Below are positions 20,374 to 28,253 of a stretch of 64,000 nt of DNA, one piece after another. A program made the translations under genes and the position numbers. The first letter of the stretch is position 1. Each line of letters opens with the position of its first letter. This DNA comes from an uncultured Ruminococcus sp. Its GTDB lineage: Bacteria; Bacillota; Clostridia; Oscillospirales; Ruminococcaceae. The notes under the pieces are model-generated. The model saw only the letters and a list, made by a program, of their open reading frames with translations. It did not search any database and was not told the origin of the DNA. The stretch is taken from contig NZ_CAMKRR010000009.1 of assembly GCF_946415235.1 (NCBI RefSeq), positions 1,276 through 65,275 of the forward strand, in the 5' to 3' direction.

Positions 20374-23280
20374 ATGAGCAAAAAACACATTCTGGCAGGT
20401 ATCCTGTCAGCTGTTGTCTTAGGAAGTGTCTCAGCTGCATCGGCAGCTGCCGCTGACACTCTCTACGGCGACGCAAACTGCGACGGTACAGTTGATATGT
20501 CTGACGCTGTGCTTATAATGCAGTCGCTGGCTAACCCCGGAAAATACGGAGTAAACGGTACTGATTCAAAGCACATCACACAGGTAGGAATCGACTTTGC
20601 CGATGTATGTGAGAACGGTAACGGTCTTACCACAAATGACGCCCTCTCAATACAGAATTATCTCCTGGGCAACATAAAGTCACTGCCCGAATCTTACAAG
20701 AGTGATTCTTCATCAGACGAGGATGAAAAGGAAACGGTCAAGACCAAGATCCACCTCAGTGATTCAGGCATCACGATCGACGGTGAGTATGCAGCTGCAG
20801 ACGGTTCCAAGGTAACTATCACACACTCGGGCGAATTTACCATCGACGGTACTCTCTCTGACGGTCAGATCTGCGTTGATATCCCTGACGAAAAGACAGA
20901 TAAGGATACAGTTAAGCTTGTTCTCAAAGGCGTAAACATCACAGGCAGCAGTGCTCCTGCTATCCTTGTAAGCAATGCTGACAAGACCTCGATCACAGCA
21001 GCTGACGGAACCGAGAACATCATCTCTGACGGCACATCGGCTTACACAGGCGACGAGGCCGAGAGCGCTGTTATCGAAGCCAAGGACGATCTTACCATCA
21101 AGGGCGGCGACAACGGCACAGGTACTCTCACTATCAATGCAAATATCCAGCCTGCTATCGTCTGCAACAACGATCTCAAGATCACAGGCGGTATCCTTAA
21201 CGTAAATACTCTCAACGAGGCTCAGGACGTTTCTCCCGATACTATCAAGGGCAAGGGCTCCGTTACGGTAAAGGGCGGCACGATCAATATCGTTTCAAAG
21301 GGCGACGGTATCAAGTCCTCCAAGGGCGAGGTTGTCATTGAAGACGGTACTATAGTTATAAAGGCAAGCAAGGACGCTATACAGGCTGAAACAGACATCA
21401 CTATCGCAGGCGGCGATATCGCTGCATTCGGCGACAAGGGACTTACAGCCGCAGGCAACGTAAATATCACAGGCGGCAGCGTAGTTGCTACAGCTTCCGA
21501 TAATCAGTGTGAAACCCTTGCTTCAACGGAACAGGCAGCACTTATGCTCGACTTTACAAAGGAATGGAGCAAAAACAATCCTATTTCTGTAACCGATCCA
21601 TCAAACAAGGTCCTCATTGAGAAGAATACTCTCAAGAAGTATAAGTATGCTATCGTTTCTTCACCTGATATCGCTTCAGGCGAGCTTAAGGTATTCGCAG
21701 GCGGAATCAAGATGAAGCACAGTGAGGGCAGCACCTTCAAGAGCGGCAAGCCTGCCAAGTACACAGAAGTAAACAACGATATGGATAACGAGGAGCAGCT
21801 TTATGAGGAGCTCTTCAGCCAGGAAAAGATACATAAGATAGACATTCAGATAGATGAAGCTGTATGGGATAATCTCCTGAAAACAGCAAGCAAGGAAGAA
21901 TGGACTCCTTGTGATGTTGTTATCGACGGTGAAACTATCAGGAACGCCGGTATCAGAGCGAAGGGAAACAGCTCTCTTATGATGGCTAAGGACGGCAAAT
22001 ACAGCTTCCGTCTGAAGCTCGACAAATATGATAAGGAAAACAACTATCACGGCTTGACAGAGTTCTGCATGAACAATATGCTCATGGACGCTTCATGCCT
22101 CAGAGATATAATCTGCTACAACGCAATGTACGAGGTCGGCGGTGTTGCTCCTCATGCAGCTCACACAGATATGTACCTCAACGGTAACCTCTACAGCTTC
22201 TATCTCCTTGCAGAGCAGCCGGGTACTACACTTGCAGAGCGCTATGCTGTTGATGATGACTCCGTTCTCTACAAGGCAACAGAAAAAACAGGAAACGAAA
22301 ACGGCGGCTGGGGCGGCTTTGGCGGCGACAGCTACTGCTCATTCACGGAGAATATGCCTCTGGACAGATTCGATGTTAAATTCGGAACTGACGATGAATA
22401 CTCACATATCCAGGATGTAAAAACAGCTATCAATAAGCTCACACCAACAGACTACAAGTTTATCGAGGACGTTATCGACGTACCAAGCTTCCTCAAGGGC
22501 TTTGCCGTAAACTCAATATTCTGCAACTACGACAGCTATAACGGCTCACTTGCTCATAACTACTACCTCATGTATTCAGGAGGCAGGATGCACTTTGTAG
22601 GCTGGGATTACAACCTCTGTCTCGGAAACTTCACAGGCGGTGCAAACTCGGTAACTTCCGACATTAAGACAAGTCTTTATCAGTCAACTATTGAGGATCG
22701 TCCTCTTGCCAAGCTTCTTCAGGTACCTGAGTACTATGATATGTATGTTGACATAGTAAAGGACATCATCAACTATTACAGTGATCCCGAAAAGTATGTT
22801 GCTGACTATTCAAAGAAGATACGTTCACACGTAGAAGCTGATCCGCGCTTTGAATTCACTATCGAGGACTTCGATACAAACACCTCAGCAAGCGAAGAAG
22901 GACTCCAGTACAGTGAAGAAGATACAGGCAATGCCTGGGGCAACTGGGGCGGCTTCGGCGGCGGTGATGCTAACGGCGAAGGCGGGGCCTGGGGCGGCTT
23001 CGGCGGCGGAGATGCCAACGGTGAAGGCGGTGCCTGGGGCGACTTCGGCGGCGGAGATGCCAACGGTGAAGGCGGTGCCTGGGGCGGCTTCGGCGGAGAC
23101 GCAAGCTTCGACTGGGCTAACATGGACTGGGAAAACATGGATTGGAGCAACATGGACTGGGGCGACATGGACTGGGGTGATATGGACTTCGGCGGCGGTA
23201 TGTTCGGCGGCGGTCAGACTTCAGTTGTTGACTTCCTTATCAAGAGATTTGAAATAATCCTTGAAGCTCTCAAAGATTAA
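20374..23280 (+). CDS. Secreted protein: N-terminal group-1-type dockerin, Cthe_2159-like beta-helix carbohydrate-binding domain, CotH-family kinase, C-terminal Gly/Trp-rich repeats
   Basis: Signal peptide ending AAAA-D; GDANCDGTVDMSDAVLIMQSLANPGKYG; VTITHSGEFTIDGTLSDGQI.V, ITIAGGDI (beta-helix); GIRAKGNSS, YSFRLKLDKY, NYDSY, HNYYL, GWDYN (CotH). Confidence 0.88.
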   Translation: MSKKHILAGILSAVVLGSVSAASAAAADTLYGDANCDGTVDMSDAVLIMQSLANPGKYGVNGTDSKHITQVGIDFADVCENGNGLTTNDALSIQNYLLGNIKSLPESYKSDSSSDEDEKETVKTKIHLSDSGITIDGEYAAADGSKVTITHSGEFTIDGTLSDGQICVDIPDEKTDKDTVKLVLKGVNITGSSAPAILVSNADKTSITAADGTENIISDGTSAYTGDEAESAVIEAKDDLTIKGGDNGTGTLTINANIQPAIVCNNDLKITGGILNVNTLNEAQDVSPDTIKGKGSVTVKGGTINIVSKGDGIKSSKGEVVIEDGTIVIKASKDAIQAETDITIAGGDIAAFGDKGLTAAGNVNITGGSVVATASDNQCETLASTEQAALMLDFTKEWSKNNPISVTDPSNKVLIEKNTLKKYKYAIVSSPDIASGELKVFAGGIKMKHSEGSTFKSGKPAKYTEVNNDMDNEEQLYEELFSQEKIHKIDIQIDEAVWDNLLKTASKEEWTPCDVVIDGETIRNAGIRAKGNSSLMMAKDGKYSFRLKLDKYDKENNYHGLTEFCMNNMLMDASCLRDIICYNAMYEVGGVAPHAAHTDMYLNGNLYSFYLLAEQPGTTLAERYAVDDDSVLYKATEKTGNENGGWGGFGGDSYCSFTENMPLDRFDVKFGTDDEYSHIQDVKTAINKLTPTDYKFIEDVIDVPSFLKGFAVNSIFCNYDSYNGSLAHNYYLMYSGGRMHFVGWDYNLCLGNFTGGANSVTSDIKTSLYQSTIEDRPLAKLLQVPEYYDMYVDIVKDIINYYSDPEKYVADYSKKIRSHVEADPRFEFTIEDFDTNTSASEEGLQYSEEDTGNAWGNWGGFGGGDANGEGGAWGGFGGGDANGEGGAWGDFGGGDANGEGGAWGGFGGDASFDWANMDWENMDWSNMDWGDMDWGDMDFGGGMFGGGQTSVVDFLIKRFEIILEALKD
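22945..23100 (+). repeat. Intragenic 45-bp tandem repeat x3.5 encoding (WGGFGGGDANGEGGA)n
   Basis: Units start at 22945, 22990, 23035 and 23080 (partial). Confidence 0.95.
23110..23190 (+). repeat. Intragenic 15-bp tandem repeat x5.4 encoding (DWxxM)n
   Basis: gactgggctaacatg, gactgggaaaacatg, gattggagcaacatg, gactggggcgacatg, gactggggtgatatg, gacttc. Confidence 0.95.
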
Positions 23281-23296
23281 TCGGATTTAAAAACTA

Positions 23297-23332
23297 AAAA
23301 GCCATGTAAGGTTTATTCCTTACATGGCTTTT
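23297..23332. terminator. Bidirectional intrinsic terminator
   Basis: 15-bp stem aaaagccatgtaagg/ccttacatggctttt between convergent genes. Confidence 0.88.
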
Positions 23333-23346
23333 CCTTTAGCGTTCTG

Positions 23347-25653
23347 TCAGCCCTGAACCGAATTTTTTGCATAAGTGCTGAGTATGGAAGCAGCGTCTAC
23401 ACTGTCTACGATACCGTCTGTATTCAGGTCTGCCATATACTGCATCTGTGCTTCTGTTACAGTACTTACCTCTGCATTTACAGAAGACTGTGCGTAGTAA
23501 TTAAGTACCTTGCTTGCATCAACGGCTGTAACATTGCCGTCAAAGTCAACATCTCCCGCTTCCTTGTCCTTGCAGAGCTTTTCGATATATGGTCTGATAT
23601 CGCTGAGGTCTGTAAAGCCTTTCTTCTCAACAAGTTCAAGGTAGTATATATCCAGCTGATAATCAGGTATATCATTGTACAAGTCATCCACATACATAAA
23701 GATCATGAAATCAACAAACGTGCCTGCGATTCCGTCATTGTCAAGATCGACCTGCGTATCTATAAAGTTCCACTGATCTGCAGGAAGAATACTGTTTTCA
23801 GCGGTTATACCATTGCGAAGGTCTGATATATAAAGCATGAAAGAATATGAATCAAATCCGTCTATCTTTCCGTCCTTGTTTATATCATAAAGATGACTTG
23901 TAAGGCCGCTGTCACAGTCAGCCTTTGCCTTCTTGTCTACTGCTATGAGGACATCATTATTGTTCATATATTCATAGTCCATGATAGCAGTATACAATTT
24001 CGGGGATTCCTTCTGGCCTGTGAGATCAACACCTGACTTTATAAAATAGCGGTTTGCTATCGACAGCAAACTGTTGACGAATTGATGAGCAACAGGTATA
24101 TCGCAGAGCTTTAAATTGCTGCGGTACTGCATATAATACACACTTGTCGTATTGATATAATCCAGCTCTGTACTGTTCATGATATATCTTCCTATCATGT
24201 CAAATACCGTCACATTGCCCAGAGCCGGGCCGAACTTTTTATAATCTATAAAGGAGTATACATAGTCATAGATCGGCTCGCACTTGTCCCAGAGCTTCTG
24301 CTTTTCATCTTCGGGAAGCGTGAGAAGCTCTCTGAGCTTCACATCAAAATTGTAATTGGTCTGACACAGTATTCCTTCGCCCGTGGTTATCGTATTGAAG
24401 CGCATGAAATACTCTTCTTTCACAATAGAGCTGGTCTGGAAATCATCGGCAGAGGCTACATCATAGATGTAGATATCATAGAGATCTCTCAGGTCTGTTA
24501 TGCCGTCTTCATTCACGTCGAAGCTGTAATTCCTGCTCCTGGCGTCATCAGCAAATCTCTTGTAGTATGCGTCGTTGTACTTAAAGGTATCTTCCCATTC
24601 TATACCGTTAAGATATTTTTTGAAGCAAAGCTCAACAAAGCTGTTAATATTTCCCTCGGAGCCGTATGGATAGCACGAGTCAATAAACTCGTTGATCTTC
24701 AGCTTTTCCTTTACGTCTTCGGGAGCGTCATCAGAGACACTTCTTGTAATATATTCATAAGAATTTTTAATCCATGGAGTTAAATAATTATAGGAATCAT
24801 AATAAGCTTTGAACTGCTCCTCAGAGAATTTGTAAATAAACATCTCACTGATAAGAGCACTGTCGGCAGAGTCGATCTTTCCGTCCTTATTTACATCTCC
24901 TTTTGCCTCGCATCTTTCCGCATAGCCTTCGGGCAGCGATGAAGGCTCGTTCACATAGGTAAAGAGCGCATAAGCGTCGAAAGGATCTGTCTTGCCGCTG
25001 CCGTCAAAGTCAAAGAGCATCGGATTCTCATCAATGTAATTGACAGACTCTGCCAGCGGATCAAGCTCATTCGGAGTATAAAGTTCTTCTGCGTATGCAT
25101 TCATATTAACTCCGCTTGATGCAAGAGCTGCTGCTGAAAGAGCAGCAAGATACTTTTTAACATTATTTACTTTCATTCTGATTACCTCCATACAATCATT
25201 TTCATTGATATCAGCCATATCTGTCGTTTGTGTCTGAGAAGCAGCTGTTGTTTCGGCAGCTGAAGCTGCTTTTGTCAAAGCAGATGATATCATTGAGGAC
25301 GTACCTTTTGCCGTGGAAGAAACAGTTGTTACTTCTTTGACCTTTCCCGACGCCTTAACAGTTGTTGTATAAGTCGTCACAGGAAAAGAAGAAGTATCAT
25401 TTACTGTAGTTATGATCTCAGACACTGACACAGTCGTATCGTCTGTTATCAGTATATTATCCGTATCATTTACAGCAGGCTTGTTCCCGAACGATGAAAA
25501 GTGCACAACTCCCGCTGTTAATACGCTGACAGCAGCTGCAGCTGAAACAGCCGCACAGGCTTTTTTAATATGTATATGTTTTAATCTCTTTTGTTCAAGA
25601 TGCTCATCCCGTATCCTGAATACGGCATCGGCGATGTCTTTAGTATCTCTCAT
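23347..25653 (-). CDS. Anti-sigma-factor-like membrane protein with Ser/Thr stalk, internal second signal peptide, several dockerin-like Ca2+ loops and C-terminal group-4-type dockerin
   Basis: Translationally coupled to the ECF sigma stop; short basic N-tail plus TM (ACAAVSAAAAVSVLTAGVV); C-terminal GDVDFDGNVTAVDASKVLNYYA...ADLNTDGIVDSVDAASILSTYA. Confidence 0.8.
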   Translation of the reverse strand: MRDTKDIADAVFRIRDEHLEQKRLKHIHIKKACAAVSAAAAVSVLTAGVVHFSSFGNKPAVNDTDNILITDDTTVSVSEIITTVNDTSSFPVTTYTTTVKASGKVKEVTTVSSTAKGTSSMISSALTKAASAAETTAASQTQTTDMADINENDCMEVIRMKVNNVKKYLAALSAAALASSGVNMNAYAEELYTPNELDPLAESVNYIDENPMLFDFDGSGKTDPFDAYALFTYVNEPSSLPEGYAERCEAKGDVNKDGKIDSADSALISEMFIYKFSEEQFKAYYDSYNYLTPWIKNSYEYITRSVSDDAPEDVKEKLKINEFIDSCYPYGSEGNINSFVELCFKKYLNGIEWEDTFKYNDAYYKRFADDARSRNYSFDVNEDGITDLRDLYDIYIYDVASADDFQTSSIVKEEYFMRFNTITTGEGILCQTNYNFDVKLRELLTLPEDEKQKLWDKCEPIYDYVYSFIDYKKFGPALGNVTVFDMIGRYIMNSTELDYINTTSVYYMQYRSNLKLCDIPVAHQFVNSLLSIANRYFIKSGVDLTGQKESPKLYTAIMDYEYMNNNDVLIAVDKKAKADCDSGLTSHLYDINKDGKIDGFDSYSFMLYISDLRNGITAENSILPADQWNFIDTQVDLDNDGIAGTFVDFMIFMYVDDLYNDIPDYQLDIYYLELVEKKGFTDLSDIRPYIEKLCKDKEAGDVDFDGNVTAVDASKVLNYYAQSSVNAEVSTVTEAQMQYMADLNTDGIVDSVDAASILSTYAKNSVQG
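25174..25189 (-). promoter_or_regulatory. Internal in-frame ribosome-binding site and ATG (codon 160)
   Basis: Minus strand GGAGGT-aatcaga-ATG at 25176, in frame, immediately followed by MKVNNVKKYLAALSAAALASSGVNMNAYA. Confidence 0.65.
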
Positions 25654-26194
25654 ATATAAAGCCCTTCCTTTCCAGTTCTGTTTTCAACGACTTTCTCGCT
25701 CTGAAAATAAGATCGCTGACCTGTCGTCTGGCTTTGTGCATTATCTTAGCGATATCCGAAGTATCAAGGTCCTCAAAATACATGAGGTAGAGCACCTGAT
25801 AATAATCAGGATTAAGCCGTTTCATCGCTTTATAAAGCTCTGCTTTCTGCTCTTCCATGAAAAATTCCTTTTCAGTATCTGTTACATCGGATATGTTAAG
25901 CTGTTCATCAAGAGACAAATCTGATAATTTCTTGTTCTTCCTAAGATGGTCGATAGCGCAGTTCCTTGCGATAGTGAACAGCCACGTTTTAAATGAGCAT
26001 TTGCCCTTGAAGGCAGGCTTCTTTATAGCAAGCTTAACAAAGGTATCCTGCATTATATCCTCAGCAAGGCTCATATTGTTCACTATACTATTAAGGTAAA
26101 GCGACATTCCCTCATGATATTCGTCAATTATTTCTATTAATCCATTATCATCACCATCAAGGAAACGGCGGTAGCGCTCTGCATCGTTTCCCAT
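25640..26194 (-). CDS. ECF sigma-70 factor
   Basis: AEDIMQDTFVKL, SFKTWLFTIARNCAIDHLRK (region 2); L..L.....QVLYLMYFEDL...DIA.IM (region 4). Confidence 0.93.
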   Translation of the reverse strand: MGNDAERYRRFLDGDDNGLIEIIDEYHEGMSLYLNSIVNNMSLAEDIMQDTFVKLAIKKPAFKGKCSFKTWLFTIARNCAIDHLRKNKKLSDLSLDEQLNISDVTDTEKEFFMEEQKAELYKAMKRLNPDYYQVLYLMYFEDLDTSDIAKIMHKARRQVSDLIFRARKSLKTELERKGFIYERY

Positions 26195-26236: not shown

Positions 26237-26324
26237 CTATTAGACGTATGAAATGTAAAATTTACGCACATGAATTTTCCTTTTTTCTCAATTATATAAT
26301 AGCACCATATTGAGAGACTGTCAA
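26237..26324 (-). promoter_or_regulatory. Tandem promoters for the leftward ECF operon: SigA-type plus candidate ECF-type
   Basis: Minus strand TTGACA-17-TATTAT with TG (26296-26324); downstream TGCGTAAATTTT-N10-CGTCTAATAG (26237-26268) resembles CGTC-type ECF -10 elements. Confidence 0.55.
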
Positions 26325-26386: not shown

Positions 26387-26472
26387 TTGAAAAATACACG
26401 GATATGGTATATAATAAAATAAGTTTCCCAAAAAAATGTGTTACACTTTTGAGCGTCACAGCAAGTATATAT
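26387..26472 (+). promoter_or_regulatory. Tandem promoters for the rightward ECF operon: SigA-type plus candidate ECF-type
   Basis: TTGAAA-17-TATAAT (26387-26415); downstream TGTTACACTTTT...GTATATA (about 26439-26471) is a possible ECF promoter. Confidence 0.5.
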
Positions 26473-26526
26473 TATGAAAGCACTTACAGCGCGCCAGGCT
26501 TTTTAATAAAACAAAGGGGTGGTCCT

Positions 26527-27102
26527 ATGACTGACAAAGAATATCGCAGAATATACGCCAATGATCCGCAAAAAGCCCAGACTGAACTGTTTGATGAATA
26601 CCTGAATTATGTTTATGCCATAGTTTACAACAAACTTCGCAGCTGCGGCAGCCGTGAAGATGTTGAGGAATGTGTGGGTGATGTTTTTTCAGCTGTTTTT
26701 ATAAGCTATGACCATAACGGAAGCTTCAGCGGCGATCTGAAAGGCCTTATAGGAACTATTGCAAACCGCACGGCTGTACAGAGGTACCGAAAGCTCGTCC
26801 GTAACTGCAATACAGTATATATAGAAAACGAGACATCGGAAATTGCAGATACGGAATGTATCGAGGAGAATGCAGAACGCAGTGTTTTGAAGAATACGCT
26901 CTTAAAGCTTATAAAAAGCCTCGGAGAGCCCGATTCGGACATTATAATACAGAAGTACTATTATAATATGAATTCTAAGGAAATAGCGGATAAACATTCA
27001 ATGTCCCCCGAATCAGTGAGAATGAGATGCAGCAGAGCCCTGAAAAAGCTTAAGGCTCTTCTTGCTGATGAAGGCTACGATATGAAGGAGGGAAATATAT
27101 GA
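26527..27102 (+). CDS. ECF sigma-70 factor
   Basis: Start MTDKEY at 26527 after aggggtg. DVEECVGDVF, DLKGLIGTIA.R.A...YRK; L...D..IIIQKYYYNMNSKEIA....SPESVRMRCSRA.KKLK. Confidence 0.92.
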   Translation: MTDKEYRRIYANDPQKAQTELFDEYLNYVYAIVYNKLRSCGSREDVEECVGDVFSAVFISYDHNGSFSGDLKGLIGTIANRTAVQRYRKLVRNCNTVYIENETSEIADTECIEENAERSVLKNTLLKLIKSLGEPDSDIIIQKYYYNMNSKEIADKHSMSPESVRMRCSRALKKLKALLADEGYDMKEGNI

Positions 27103-28253
27103 GCGAAAATAGAAAAATAGGCTTTGATGTCCTCGAAAACTCCGATATAAACACCATAGAGCAATTAGGTACAGATAAAATGAATATTGATAAAAGCGCA
27201 CGAGACAGAATGCTCAAAAATACAATGCAGAAATATGAAAACGAGAAGAAAAAGCTCAGTATTTCGCAGACTGCAGCGGATGCAGACAACGAATCGGCTG
27301 ATTCCGTAACAGGGGTTGAGATGTATGATCGCAGAAAAGCACCGCATATCATTTATATCGTTTTATGTTCAGCAGCAGCAGTCGCACTGGCGGTCGGAAG
27401 CATAGCTATGTTCAGTCGTCAGAAAAATATTACTCCCGATATCAAAAACCCTGTAGCTGAAATGACTTCCACTGTATCAACAACTACTGTTACAGGCACT
27501 TCTGCGGCGGCTTCAACGGTCAATTCCGCTGAAACATCAAAGCTCACGGAAACGAAAACAACTGCAAATATTTCAGTACAAAGCACAACAGCAGAAGAAG
27601 CTTCCACAACAGCCGCTGTTACAGAAACTACTGCCGAACAGACGCAGTCAAACACAGCTGTATCAGCACCGTACAAAAATCCTCATACAGACCGCACCGA
27701 TATCTCTCAGGAAGAGCTGGAAGCTGCGGCTGTCAGAGCAGTCAGGGGGCTTATACGTGATAATACGGAGTTCCAAAACCTTAATCCACAGATGGAGTTT
27801 ACATTCAGCTATGCATTCTATGACGTAAACGCTGATTCAGTACCCGAACTGTTTATCACAAAAAGGTATGTTCTCCAGGAACAATATATGTACGTATACG
27901 ACGGAAACGAATATGTTTCGGCGCGCTTCAACGGTCATAACATTGACGGCAGTGAGAAAGTACATGATGTAACAATTGATAATATTGATGTATTAACTGC
28001 CCCAAATACTATAGCTATGCTCGGACACCAGGCAGGGGCTCAATCATTTATTATATACATGGATTCTGATAATACCATTACTCCGTTACACGAATACACA
28101 TATTACAGATATTATGAAAACGGCAGATTGACGGAAGAGAACTTATCCGATACAGAACTTTTGATGTTCAAGCGCTTTTGCGATGAATATAAAGCCTATG
28201 AACGCGTGAAGTTGAACTGGACGGTTTATAACGACACAAATTCTGCAGAGTAA
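27099..28253 (+). CDS. Cognate anti-sigma-factor-like single-pass membrane protein with Ser/Thr stalk and uncharacterised extracellular domain
   Basis: 4-bp overlap with the sigma stop; cytoplasmic ~80 aa, VTGVEMYDRRK then TM (IIYIVLCSAAAVALAVGSIAMF), T/S-rich linker, YAFYDVNADSVPELFI domain. Confidence 0.75.
   Translation: MSENRKIGFDVLENSDINTIEQLGTDKMNIDKSARDRMLKNTMQKYENEKKKLSISQTAADADNESADSVTGVEMYDRRKAPHIIYIVLCSAAAVALAVGSIAMFSRQKNITPDIKNPVAEMTSTVSTTTVTGTSAAASTVNSAETSKLTETKTTANISVQSTTAEEASTTAAVTETTAEQTQSNTAVSAPYKNPHTDRTDISQEELEAAAVRAVRGLIRDNTEFQNLNPQMEFTFSYAFYDVNADSVPELFITKRYVLQEQYMYVYDGNEYVSARFNGHNIDGSEKVHDVTIDNIDVLTAPNTIAMLGHQAGAQSFIIYMDSDNTITPLHEYTYYRYYENGRLTEENLSDTELLMFKRFCDEYKAYERVKLNWTVYNDTNSAE

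Follow-up and report, generated by a model that had tools for sequence, protein, structure and literature searches.

A sigma factor-linked Ruminococcus gene with an internal start site and signal peptide: probably one reading frame for a tethered and a secreted dockerin protein

We analyzed a 64,000-nucleotide stretch of DNA (hereafter the window; forward-strand positions 1,276 to 65,275 of contig NZ_CAMKRR010000009.1, assembly GCF_946415235.1) from an uncultured Ruminococcus sp. of the rumen, in which the gene for an extracytoplasmic function (ECF) sigma factor is overlapped by an open reading frame (ORF) of 768 codons that begins like an anti-sigma factor gene. At codon 160, this ORF holds a second start codon, which is preceded by a strong Shine-Dalgarno (SD) sequence and followed at once by a complete signal peptide. 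We consider it probable (roughly 0.6) that the one gene makes two products, a 768-aa membrane-tethered, anti-sigma-like form and a 609-aa precursor of a freely secreted protein. Two products from one gene had been proposed in an earlier note based on the letters of this DNA, and comparison with relatives now supports the proposal through the constraint on the SD sequence, the retention of ATG or TTG as start codon, and the homology of the internal start to the starts of stand-alone genes.

Results

Internal start site and embedded signal peptide

The features at the center of this reading are as follows (all positions are those of the window).

23347..25653, minus strand: long ORF, 768 aa, putative tethered anti-sigma-like form, open and full length in about 30 homologs
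25184..25189, minus strand: internal SD sequence GGAGGT, 7-nt spacer to the ATG, duplex of -10.6 kcal/mol with the anti-SD
25174..25176, minus strand: internal start codon, Met160, ATG
25090..25176, minus strand: Sec-type signal peptide, residues 160-188, predicted cleavage AYA-EE
23347..25176, minus strand: short frame, predicted from the internal start to give a 609-aa precursor, 580 aa after cleavage

Codons 155-160 of the ORF (MEVIRM) read ATG GAG GTA ATC AGA ATG, and from Met160 the protein continues as MKVNNVKK / YLAALSAAALASSGV / NMNAYA-EE, with a basic n-region, a hydrophobic core in the expected range of 10-15 residues, and small side chains at -3/-1. The signal peptide was called by inspection, conservation, and homology to the N-terminal signals of stand-alone relatives. 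The earlier note had described GGAGGT-7 nt-ATG at codons 155-160, a Sec signal running to AYA, and products of 768 and 609 aa, and each of these details is exact in the sequence. The same open frame was found in the isolate genomes YAD2003, YL228, Y1, and MA2007, indicating that the 768-aa ORF is not an assembly artifact.

In this genome, an internal SD and ATG in frame are not rare by themselves. In the 2058 ORFs of at least 250 aa from the same genome, there were 52 in-frame internal sites of the form GGAGG-N5-9-ATG, four of which passed a crude filter for signal-like sequences; by eye, Met160 alone was followed by a short Ala-rich core and an AxA motif in an otherwise soluble stretch. An SD sequence as strong as -10.6 kcal/mol stood ahead of just 0.2% of sampled internal in-frame ATGs. 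The internal SD is flanked by TGATT and AATCA (25177-25196, minus strand), a possible 5-bp stem that would place the SD in a 10-nt loop. These flanks recur in most orthologs, without variation that would allow covariation to be assessed, and folding around the internal start was not significant (z = 0.27).

Conservation in orthologs

In a protein search, about 30 full-length homologs (760-818 aa, with identities as low as 33%) were recovered from Ruminococcus flavefaciens and its near relatives, while a family-level genome search gave no match outside the genus at E <= 1e-30. Ortholog DNA was collected from species genomes and metagenomes, yielding 19 distinct orthologs with pairwise protein identities of 34-99% (median 52%). 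The internal SD in these orthologs has the form (A/G)AGGAGG: the internal Met is preceded by (A/G)AGGAGGTAATCAGA-ATG in 17 of the 19, and by close SD variants in the other two. At position 160, the start codon is ATG in 18 orthologs and TTG, itself a start codon, in the remaining one.

Synonymous codon diversity, scored on 316 conserved degenerate codon columns, was lowest in the whole gene at codons 153-159 (0.037 vs. a mean of 0.389; permutation p ~1e-4, with the reservation that lineages in our counts are related and p-values overstate their independence). Codons directly downstream of the internal ATG varied normally. The diversity minimum points to selection acting on the nucleotides, beyond the peptide EEVIR that they encode. 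Moreover, the internal SD exceeded the primary site in strength in 18 of the 19 orthologs and matched it in the last (-10.6 to -12.9 vs. -7.9 to -12.4 kcal/mol). Within the signal region, K161, K166, Y168, A170, A176, and A188 were invariant, and A186 was at least 90% conserved.

Three proteins, P0029, P0030, and P0049, initially appeared to be separate short genes starting at the internal Met, but all were truncations at contig ends, and the full-length versions of P0029 and P0030 were loci L043 and L042. Two independent metagenome contigs (L009:1-30 and L010:1-30) break off at one and the same point, 22 nt ahead of the internal ATG, where the hypervariable stalk gives way to the conserved junction. 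This suggests that stalk variants coexisting within samples interrupt assemblies at this point.

The same element in other protein families

An exhaustive HMMER search revealed a large superfamily. Dozens of its proteins, 680-1340 aa in length, bear tails that fall into at least three unrelated types. They share the order tail, membrane anchor, Ser/Thr stalk, purine-rich peptide (ERS, EGS, EGG, EEV, or KEE), M-K-K, signal-like segment, helical multi-loop domain, and dockerin, and some also carry leucine-rich repeats. Of the 162 genomes of the genus, 84 carried the P0065-type subfamily, some with as many as nine matches. Met occupied the junction in 33/33 remote relatives inspected, and at remote junctions with other peptides the SD sequence, ATG, Lys/Arg, hydrophobic core, and AxA were all found at the same place. 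The following junctions illustrate this.

Junction of locus L022: GGAAAAGGAGGAAAAT-ATG
Junction of locus L023: AAGGAGG-N11-ATG
Junction of locus L035 (two genes) and of a paralog on contig C7 of the same genome as the window: GAAAGGAGT-N6-ATG
Junction of locus L044: GAGGAGGAAATAAGA-ATG

The peptides ERS, EGS, EGG, and KEE of the paralog families all spell an SD sequence 6-11 nt before the ATG. Junction ERS was encoded as GAAAGGAG[TC] in 13/13 distinct sequences, compared with 7% of the ERS tripeptides in the window's own genome, where AGG makes up 19% of Arg codons and GGG 6% of Gly codons. In 22 of 25 lineages, the SD duplex reached -7.9 to -12.9 kcal/mol, against a background mean of -2.4 kcal/mol and 2.2% of background internal ATGs that reach -8 kcal/mol. 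The earlier note had named a conserved EV, ER, or GG plus Met ahead of an internal signal, together with synonymous-site constraint, as the pattern to look for in homologs; the peptides turned up in dozens of relatives, and the constraint was confirmed.

Two loci showed the junction in other contexts. L043 (2460-3620) has a different sigma factor (43% identity) and a different tail (MREWDEITRDLIRRRDD...) on the same junction (TTDISEIDCEEVIRMKV) and ectodomain, which looks like a module exchange by recombination inside the stalk. Protein P0076 (1027 aa) has an unrelated N-terminal ORF, without evident anchor or Ser/Thr stalk, that runs in frame into the same purine-rich junction with its Met and signal peptide; an insertion ahead of a stand-alone gene may account for this.

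One family has lost the SD. This C31 family, represented in the same genome by C31:4141-6153 (minus strand) and elsewhere by loci L050-L055, has GAAGTGAAGATAGAT-ATG (-2.4 kcal/mol) at the junction and has lost AxA as well. It keeps Met and a conserved hydrophobic segment, RIPVFLSALTAS, hinting at a role of this segment in the long form.

Stand-alone relatives and origin by fusion

Five loci, four of them distinct (L080-L084, in genomes G160, G176, G236, G166, and G241), encode stand-alone members of the ectodomain superfamily, with neither an anti-sigma stub nor a sigma factor gene nearby. They start at the homologous Met, have a stop 5-23 codons upstream, and use as ribosome-binding site in their 5' leader the same GAAAGGAGT, or AAAGGAGTA. 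The signal peptide of the fused genes is homologous to the N-terminal signal of these relatives. In the fused genes, the internal SD, ATG, and signal thus share ancestry with the true start and export signal of an ordinary secreted protein. By sequence, then, the 768-aa gene arose when an anti-sigma stub was joined in frame to a once separate gene for a secreted dockerin protein. The earlier note had offered such a fusion as another possible explanation of the embedded signal; given the stand-alone relatives it is correct as history, though the element is not a dead relic.

Layout of the 768-aa protein

The remaining parts of the long form are as follows.

25561..25653, minus strand: basic tail, predicted cytoplasmic, residues 1-31, ending in KRLKHIHIKK, presumed sigma-binding part
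25498..25560, minus strand: hydrophobic segment 1, residues 32-52, membrane anchor
25219..25497, minus strand: Ser/Thr-rich stalk, residues 53-145, hypervariable with in-frame indels
25177..25218, minus strand: junction, residues 146-159, conserved at the DNA level, former 5' leader of the secreted-protein gene
23614..25089, minus strand: all-helical ectodomain with several dockerin-like calcium loops, as predicted by AlphaFold
23386..23559, minus strand: C-terminal type I dockerin, residues 699-756 (PF00404, E = 5.8e-15)

Dockerin_1 was the sole Pfam match on the 768-aa protein. With a Foldseek probability of 1.0 and a TM score of 0.70 to the Clostridium thermocellum dockerin 2ccl_B, the duplicated calcium-binding loop-helix module is, by sequence and predicted fold, a type I dockerin, and the protein as such a putative cellulosome component. 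AlphaFold modeled residues 190-680 with a pLDDT (predicted local distance difference test score) of ~90 and the stalk as disordered; Foldseek found no fold match for the ectodomain in the PDB, the dockerin alone being matched.

Elsewhere in this genome, paralogs repeat the tail type and the anchor and continue with a long Thr-rich stalk and just a small C-terminal domain; they lack a second hydrophobic segment. Their architecture indicates that the first hydrophobic segment of the 768-aa protein is a real anchor and that its stalk is extracellular, from which we infer that the second hydrophobic segment of the long form would lie outside the membrane. This segment is short and Ala-rich, and its translocation as part of the long form is plausible under the topology proposed here.

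Three more sigma-coupled stubs of the same tail type were found on the plus strand of other contigs of this genome (C60:2308-3651, C82:11658-12779, and C29:15074-16141). Their Thr-rich stalks extend up to ~300 residues, each is followed by a small unannotated C-terminal domain, and one of them has a Gly-rich GGYAGG repeat.

Maintenance of the long form

The sigma factor was 77-93% identical among orthologs, whereas its partner protein was ~50% identical. Within the partner, mean pairwise identity was 0.75 for the tail vs. 0.27 for the stalk, which has many indels. The tail is thus conserved like the sigma factor while the rest of the protein diverges, consistent with a putative role in sigma binding. 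The sigma factor gene lies directly upstream of the partner gene, or overlaps it, in all orthologous loci that are long enough, and likewise in the paralog families. A stop between stalk and SD was found in 0 of ~45 distinct sigma-linked genes. The lack of a stop despite the hypervariable stalk, as opposed to the stops upstream of the stand-alone genes, indicates that the covalent link between stub and secreted protein is selected.

Sigma factor gene and operon signals

The following features surround the 768-aa ORF.

25640..26194, minus strand: ECF sigma factor gene, 184 aa (Pfam Sigma70_r2 and r4_2, TIGR02937)
25662..25673, minus strand: primary ribosome-binding site GGAAAGGAAGGG, within the 3' end of the sigma factor gene, duplex of -8.6 kcal/mol
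26296..26324, minus strand: promoter-like site of the sigma-70 type, TTGACA-17-TATTAT with TG, ahead of the sigma factor gene
26241..26267, minus strand: ECF-type promoter candidate GCGTAAA-N15-CGTCTA, invariant in 13 orthologous upstream regions
23296..23333, minus strand: intrinsic terminator-like hairpin, 16-bp stem followed by a T run, ending the operon

The sigma factor contains regions 2 and 4 only, as is typical of the ECF type (matches to PF04542 and PF08281), and scored 94 bits on TIGR02937 against a cut-off of 42.9. Its stop overlaps the ATG of the 768-aa ORF by 14 nt, and the primary ribosome-binding site is conserved across all orthologs. The sigma-70-type promoter block is also kept in all orthologs, and downstream of it lies an invariant ECF-promoter-like block, TGCGTAAA-N15-CGTCTAAT. 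This candidate is probably the autoregulated promoter of the operon. The hand-derived motif GCGTAA-N15-CGTCTA occurs at that spacing a single time in the 3.4-Mb genome, ahead of the sigma operon, which suggests that the operon is autoregulated and has a minimal regulon. A scan limited to clear sigma-70-type sites detected none near Met160.

Two further loci in the window border the operon. A second ECF sigma factor (232 aa with an N-terminal extension) and its 384-aa partner are encoded at 26404-28253 on the plus strand, divergently from the sigma operon. In the partner, the anchor and Ser/Thr stalk lead to a C-terminal domain without family match, and there is no internal signal peptide. On the other side (20374-23280, plus strand), a 968-aa protein combines a dockerin at its N-terminus with Cthe_2159 and CotH kinase domains, and ends in GG(F/W)GGGDANGEGGAWG and NMDW repeats.

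Discussion

We propose that the sigma factor gene and the 768-aa gene make up one operon, served by a sigma-70-type promoter of its own and probably also by an autoregulated ECF promoter, and that three proteins would be made from it. At the first start, a weaker site overlapping the sigma stop would couple translation to that of the sigma factor and give a 768-aa single-pass membrane protein. Its tail would hold the sigma factor in the cytoplasm, followed by the anchor and, outside, by a Ser/Thr stalk of ~95 residues and the whole secreted protein, including its uncleaved signal-like helix. At the second start, the stronger GGAGGT-7 nt-ATG at Met160 would give the 609-aa precursor, which would be exported by Sec, cut at AYA-EE, and able to dock into the cellulosome via its C-terminal dockerin. 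Given that the sole clear ECF-motif match in the genome precedes the sigma operon, the free protein would be the output of the operon, and the tethered copy a sensor with identical binding surfaces.

We can only speculate about what such an arrangement would achieve. It is doubtful, though conceivable, that free and tethered copies compete for the same partner and thereby produce product feedback. Similarly tentative, and in our view improbable, is a closed-loop circuit for cellulosome assembly in which the product equals the sensor and the sigma factor targets its own operon alone. In such a loop, the tethered copy would report whether its partner (a cohesin or another surface site) is still available or has been taken up by the secreted copy, and each operon would keep one cellulosome slot filled.

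Several observations weigh against the two-product reading or parts of it. The signal region was 67% identical among orthologs, vs. 52% for the ectodomain, an unusual degree of conservation for a simple signal peptide. In three fused lineages (the C31 family, L060, and L075/77), the SD is missing and yet Met and the hydrophobic segment are kept, so that this segment may have a function in the long form too, or internal initiation may be just part of the explanation. The name anti-sigma for the 768-aa protein comes from gene context, and no Pfam or NCBIfam anti-sigma model matched the whole protein or five N-terminal tails at E up to 10. Among paralogs, sigma and tail identities were uncorrelated in a small and uninformative set (r = 0.03, n = 15 pairs), and the regulon claim is thin, with one hand-derived motif behind it. 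On the other hand, AxA was degraded in two of the three lineages without SD and in none with SD (by our own classification, with small numbers), and this joint loss of SD and AxA ties the cleavage site to the internal start.

The conservation of the signal region could instead mean that the 768-aa protein alone is made and that the embedded AxA is a site-1 cleavage point for signal peptidase, which would release the ectodomain, trigger breakdown of the anti-sigma factor, and so free the sigma factor; the SD would then be a remnant or have another role. Signal peptidase does perform site-1 cleavage of the anti-sigma factors RsiV and RsiP (PMC4183432, PMC6066255, PMC8844934). The conservation of A186, A188, and the hydrophobic core, the retention of this core in SD-less lineages, and the greater conservation of the signal-like region relative to the ectodomain all agree with such a role. 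However, the AxA lies 136 residues past the anchor, while in RsiV and RsiP the site directly follows a single anchor, and Pfam detected no RsiV or RsiP domains. An extracellular remnant of 136 residues would also be too long for a site-2 protease without further trimming. With the stalk outside, as in the proposed topology, the second segment would be unable to cross the membrane in the N-in/C-out orientation that signal peptidase needs. Nor would cleavage alone account for the constraint on synonymous sites in the SD, the invariable choice of the rare AGG and GGG codons, or the retention of ATG or TTG. The earlier note had raised RsiV-like cleavage as an alternative; its AxA site is indeed conserved, but the mechanism fits less well owing to the distance from the anchor and the selection on the SD, and we regard cleavage without internal initiation as unlikely.

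It is also conceivable that two units merely share a frame, with the stub as a complete anti-sigma factor, the secreted protein made from the internal start, and the read-through product functionless but tolerated. Paralogous stubs in the same genome that have just a small C-terminal domain would fit this idea, as would the swapping of sigma and tail modules onto the same junction in L043 and the unrelated N-terminal ORF that reads into the same SD, ATG, and signal in P0076. Nevertheless, the ~45 distinct sigma-linked genes have no stop before the SD despite their variable stalk, while stand-alone genes do carry stops 5-23 codons upstream. A functionless long form therefore seems very unlikely to us. 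Finally, SD-like pause sites in membrane-protein mRNAs were once proposed and later disputed, and the fusion history is real, but a programmed ribosome pause (for instance, timing membrane targeting) or a neutral relic of recent fusion is highly improbable here, given that constraint extends down to 34% identity and across several paralog families, which excludes a neutral relic, and that a pause site needs neither an in-frame ATG or TTG at optimal spacing nor a signal peptide with AxA and would not explain why the same sequence is a true ribosome-binding site in stand-alone relatives.

Production of both a tethered and a secreted form thus remains our preferred reading, and it has precedents in part. 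In-frame internal initiation is known in bacteria, including ArcB/ArcB-C, IF2, and ClpB (Meydan et al., doi 10.1101/520783), and in ArcB the internal start yields a diffusible domain from the gene of a membrane-anchored sensor (doi 10.1101/520783). This is the nearest analog, as here, too, an SD and start within an ORF would give an N-terminally truncated isoform. In contrast to ArcB, the Ruminococcus short isoform would have its own signal peptide and be exported, the shared domain would be extracellular rather than cytoplasmic, and the case made here is comparative, not experimental.

The locus also resembles the RsiW, RsiV, RsiP, and RseA pairs, which are controlled by regulated proteolysis: an ECF sigma factor gene is overlapped by a gene encoding a short tail, one anchor, and an extracytoplasmic domain, and the operon promoter is probably autoregulated. 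Unlike these partners, the Ruminococcus protein has no recognizable anti-sigma domain (zf-HC2, RskA, or RsiV-type) and a long Ser/Thr stalk, and its extracytoplasmic portion consists of a whole secreted protein, complete with start signals and a signal peptide of its own. With RsiV and RsiP it shares an AxA-type site in the extracytoplasmic part of an ECF anti-sigma-like protein (PMC4183432, PMC8844934). Here, however, AxA ends at residue 188, behind a second hydrophobic segment, and the anchor ends at residue 52, while the RsiV (DUF4179/DUF3298) and RsiP (PepSY) domains are missing.

In C. thermocellum, RsgI/SigI and Rsi24C/Sig24C are biomass sensors with membrane-bound anti-sigma factors (PMC6056542, PMC10328401). 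As in our case, the host is a cellulosome-producing bacterium and the outer domains are cellulosome-type modules. The Ruminococcus system differs in that its sigma factor is of the ECF type, not SigI, and in having no RsgI_N, no carbohydrate-binding module or glycoside hydrolase (CBM/GH) sensor, and no conserved autoproteolytic domain. Its outer part also terminates in a dockerin and contains an internal start. Closest to this outer part are the stand-alone genes L080-L084, which have the same signal peptide, helical multi-loop domain, and dockerin, with GAAAGGAGT before the same Met, but differ in their missing stub and adjacent sigma factor and in the stop 5-23 codons upstream. Our literature search found no description of a dockerin-bearing anti-sigma factor or of an anti-sigma factor with an embedded signal peptide, and the main surveys of R. 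flavefaciens dockerins do not mention sigma factors.

The regulation of the dockerin proteins of R. flavefaciens, which number more than 200, has been acknowledged as an open problem (PMC4081043), and the clostridial SigI/RsgI sensors do not explain it. The superfamily reported here constitutes a large, apparently undescribed class of ECF-coupled membrane proteins in which the sensing domain is a cellulosome component. It is widespread in the genus and offers a testable way into dockerin regulation in R. flavefaciens. Given that annotation pipelines report the long form only, the secreted product would have been missed in every genome. If our reading is true, this would be a clear case of one reading frame kept to make both a tethered and a free extracellular domain, with a ribosome-binding site written into the protein as conserved ERS, EGS, or EEV peptides. 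With at least three unrelated tail types and an occurrence in about half of the genomes of the genus, the design could, more speculatively, even be a general bacterial way of building a sensor from the protein that is sensed.

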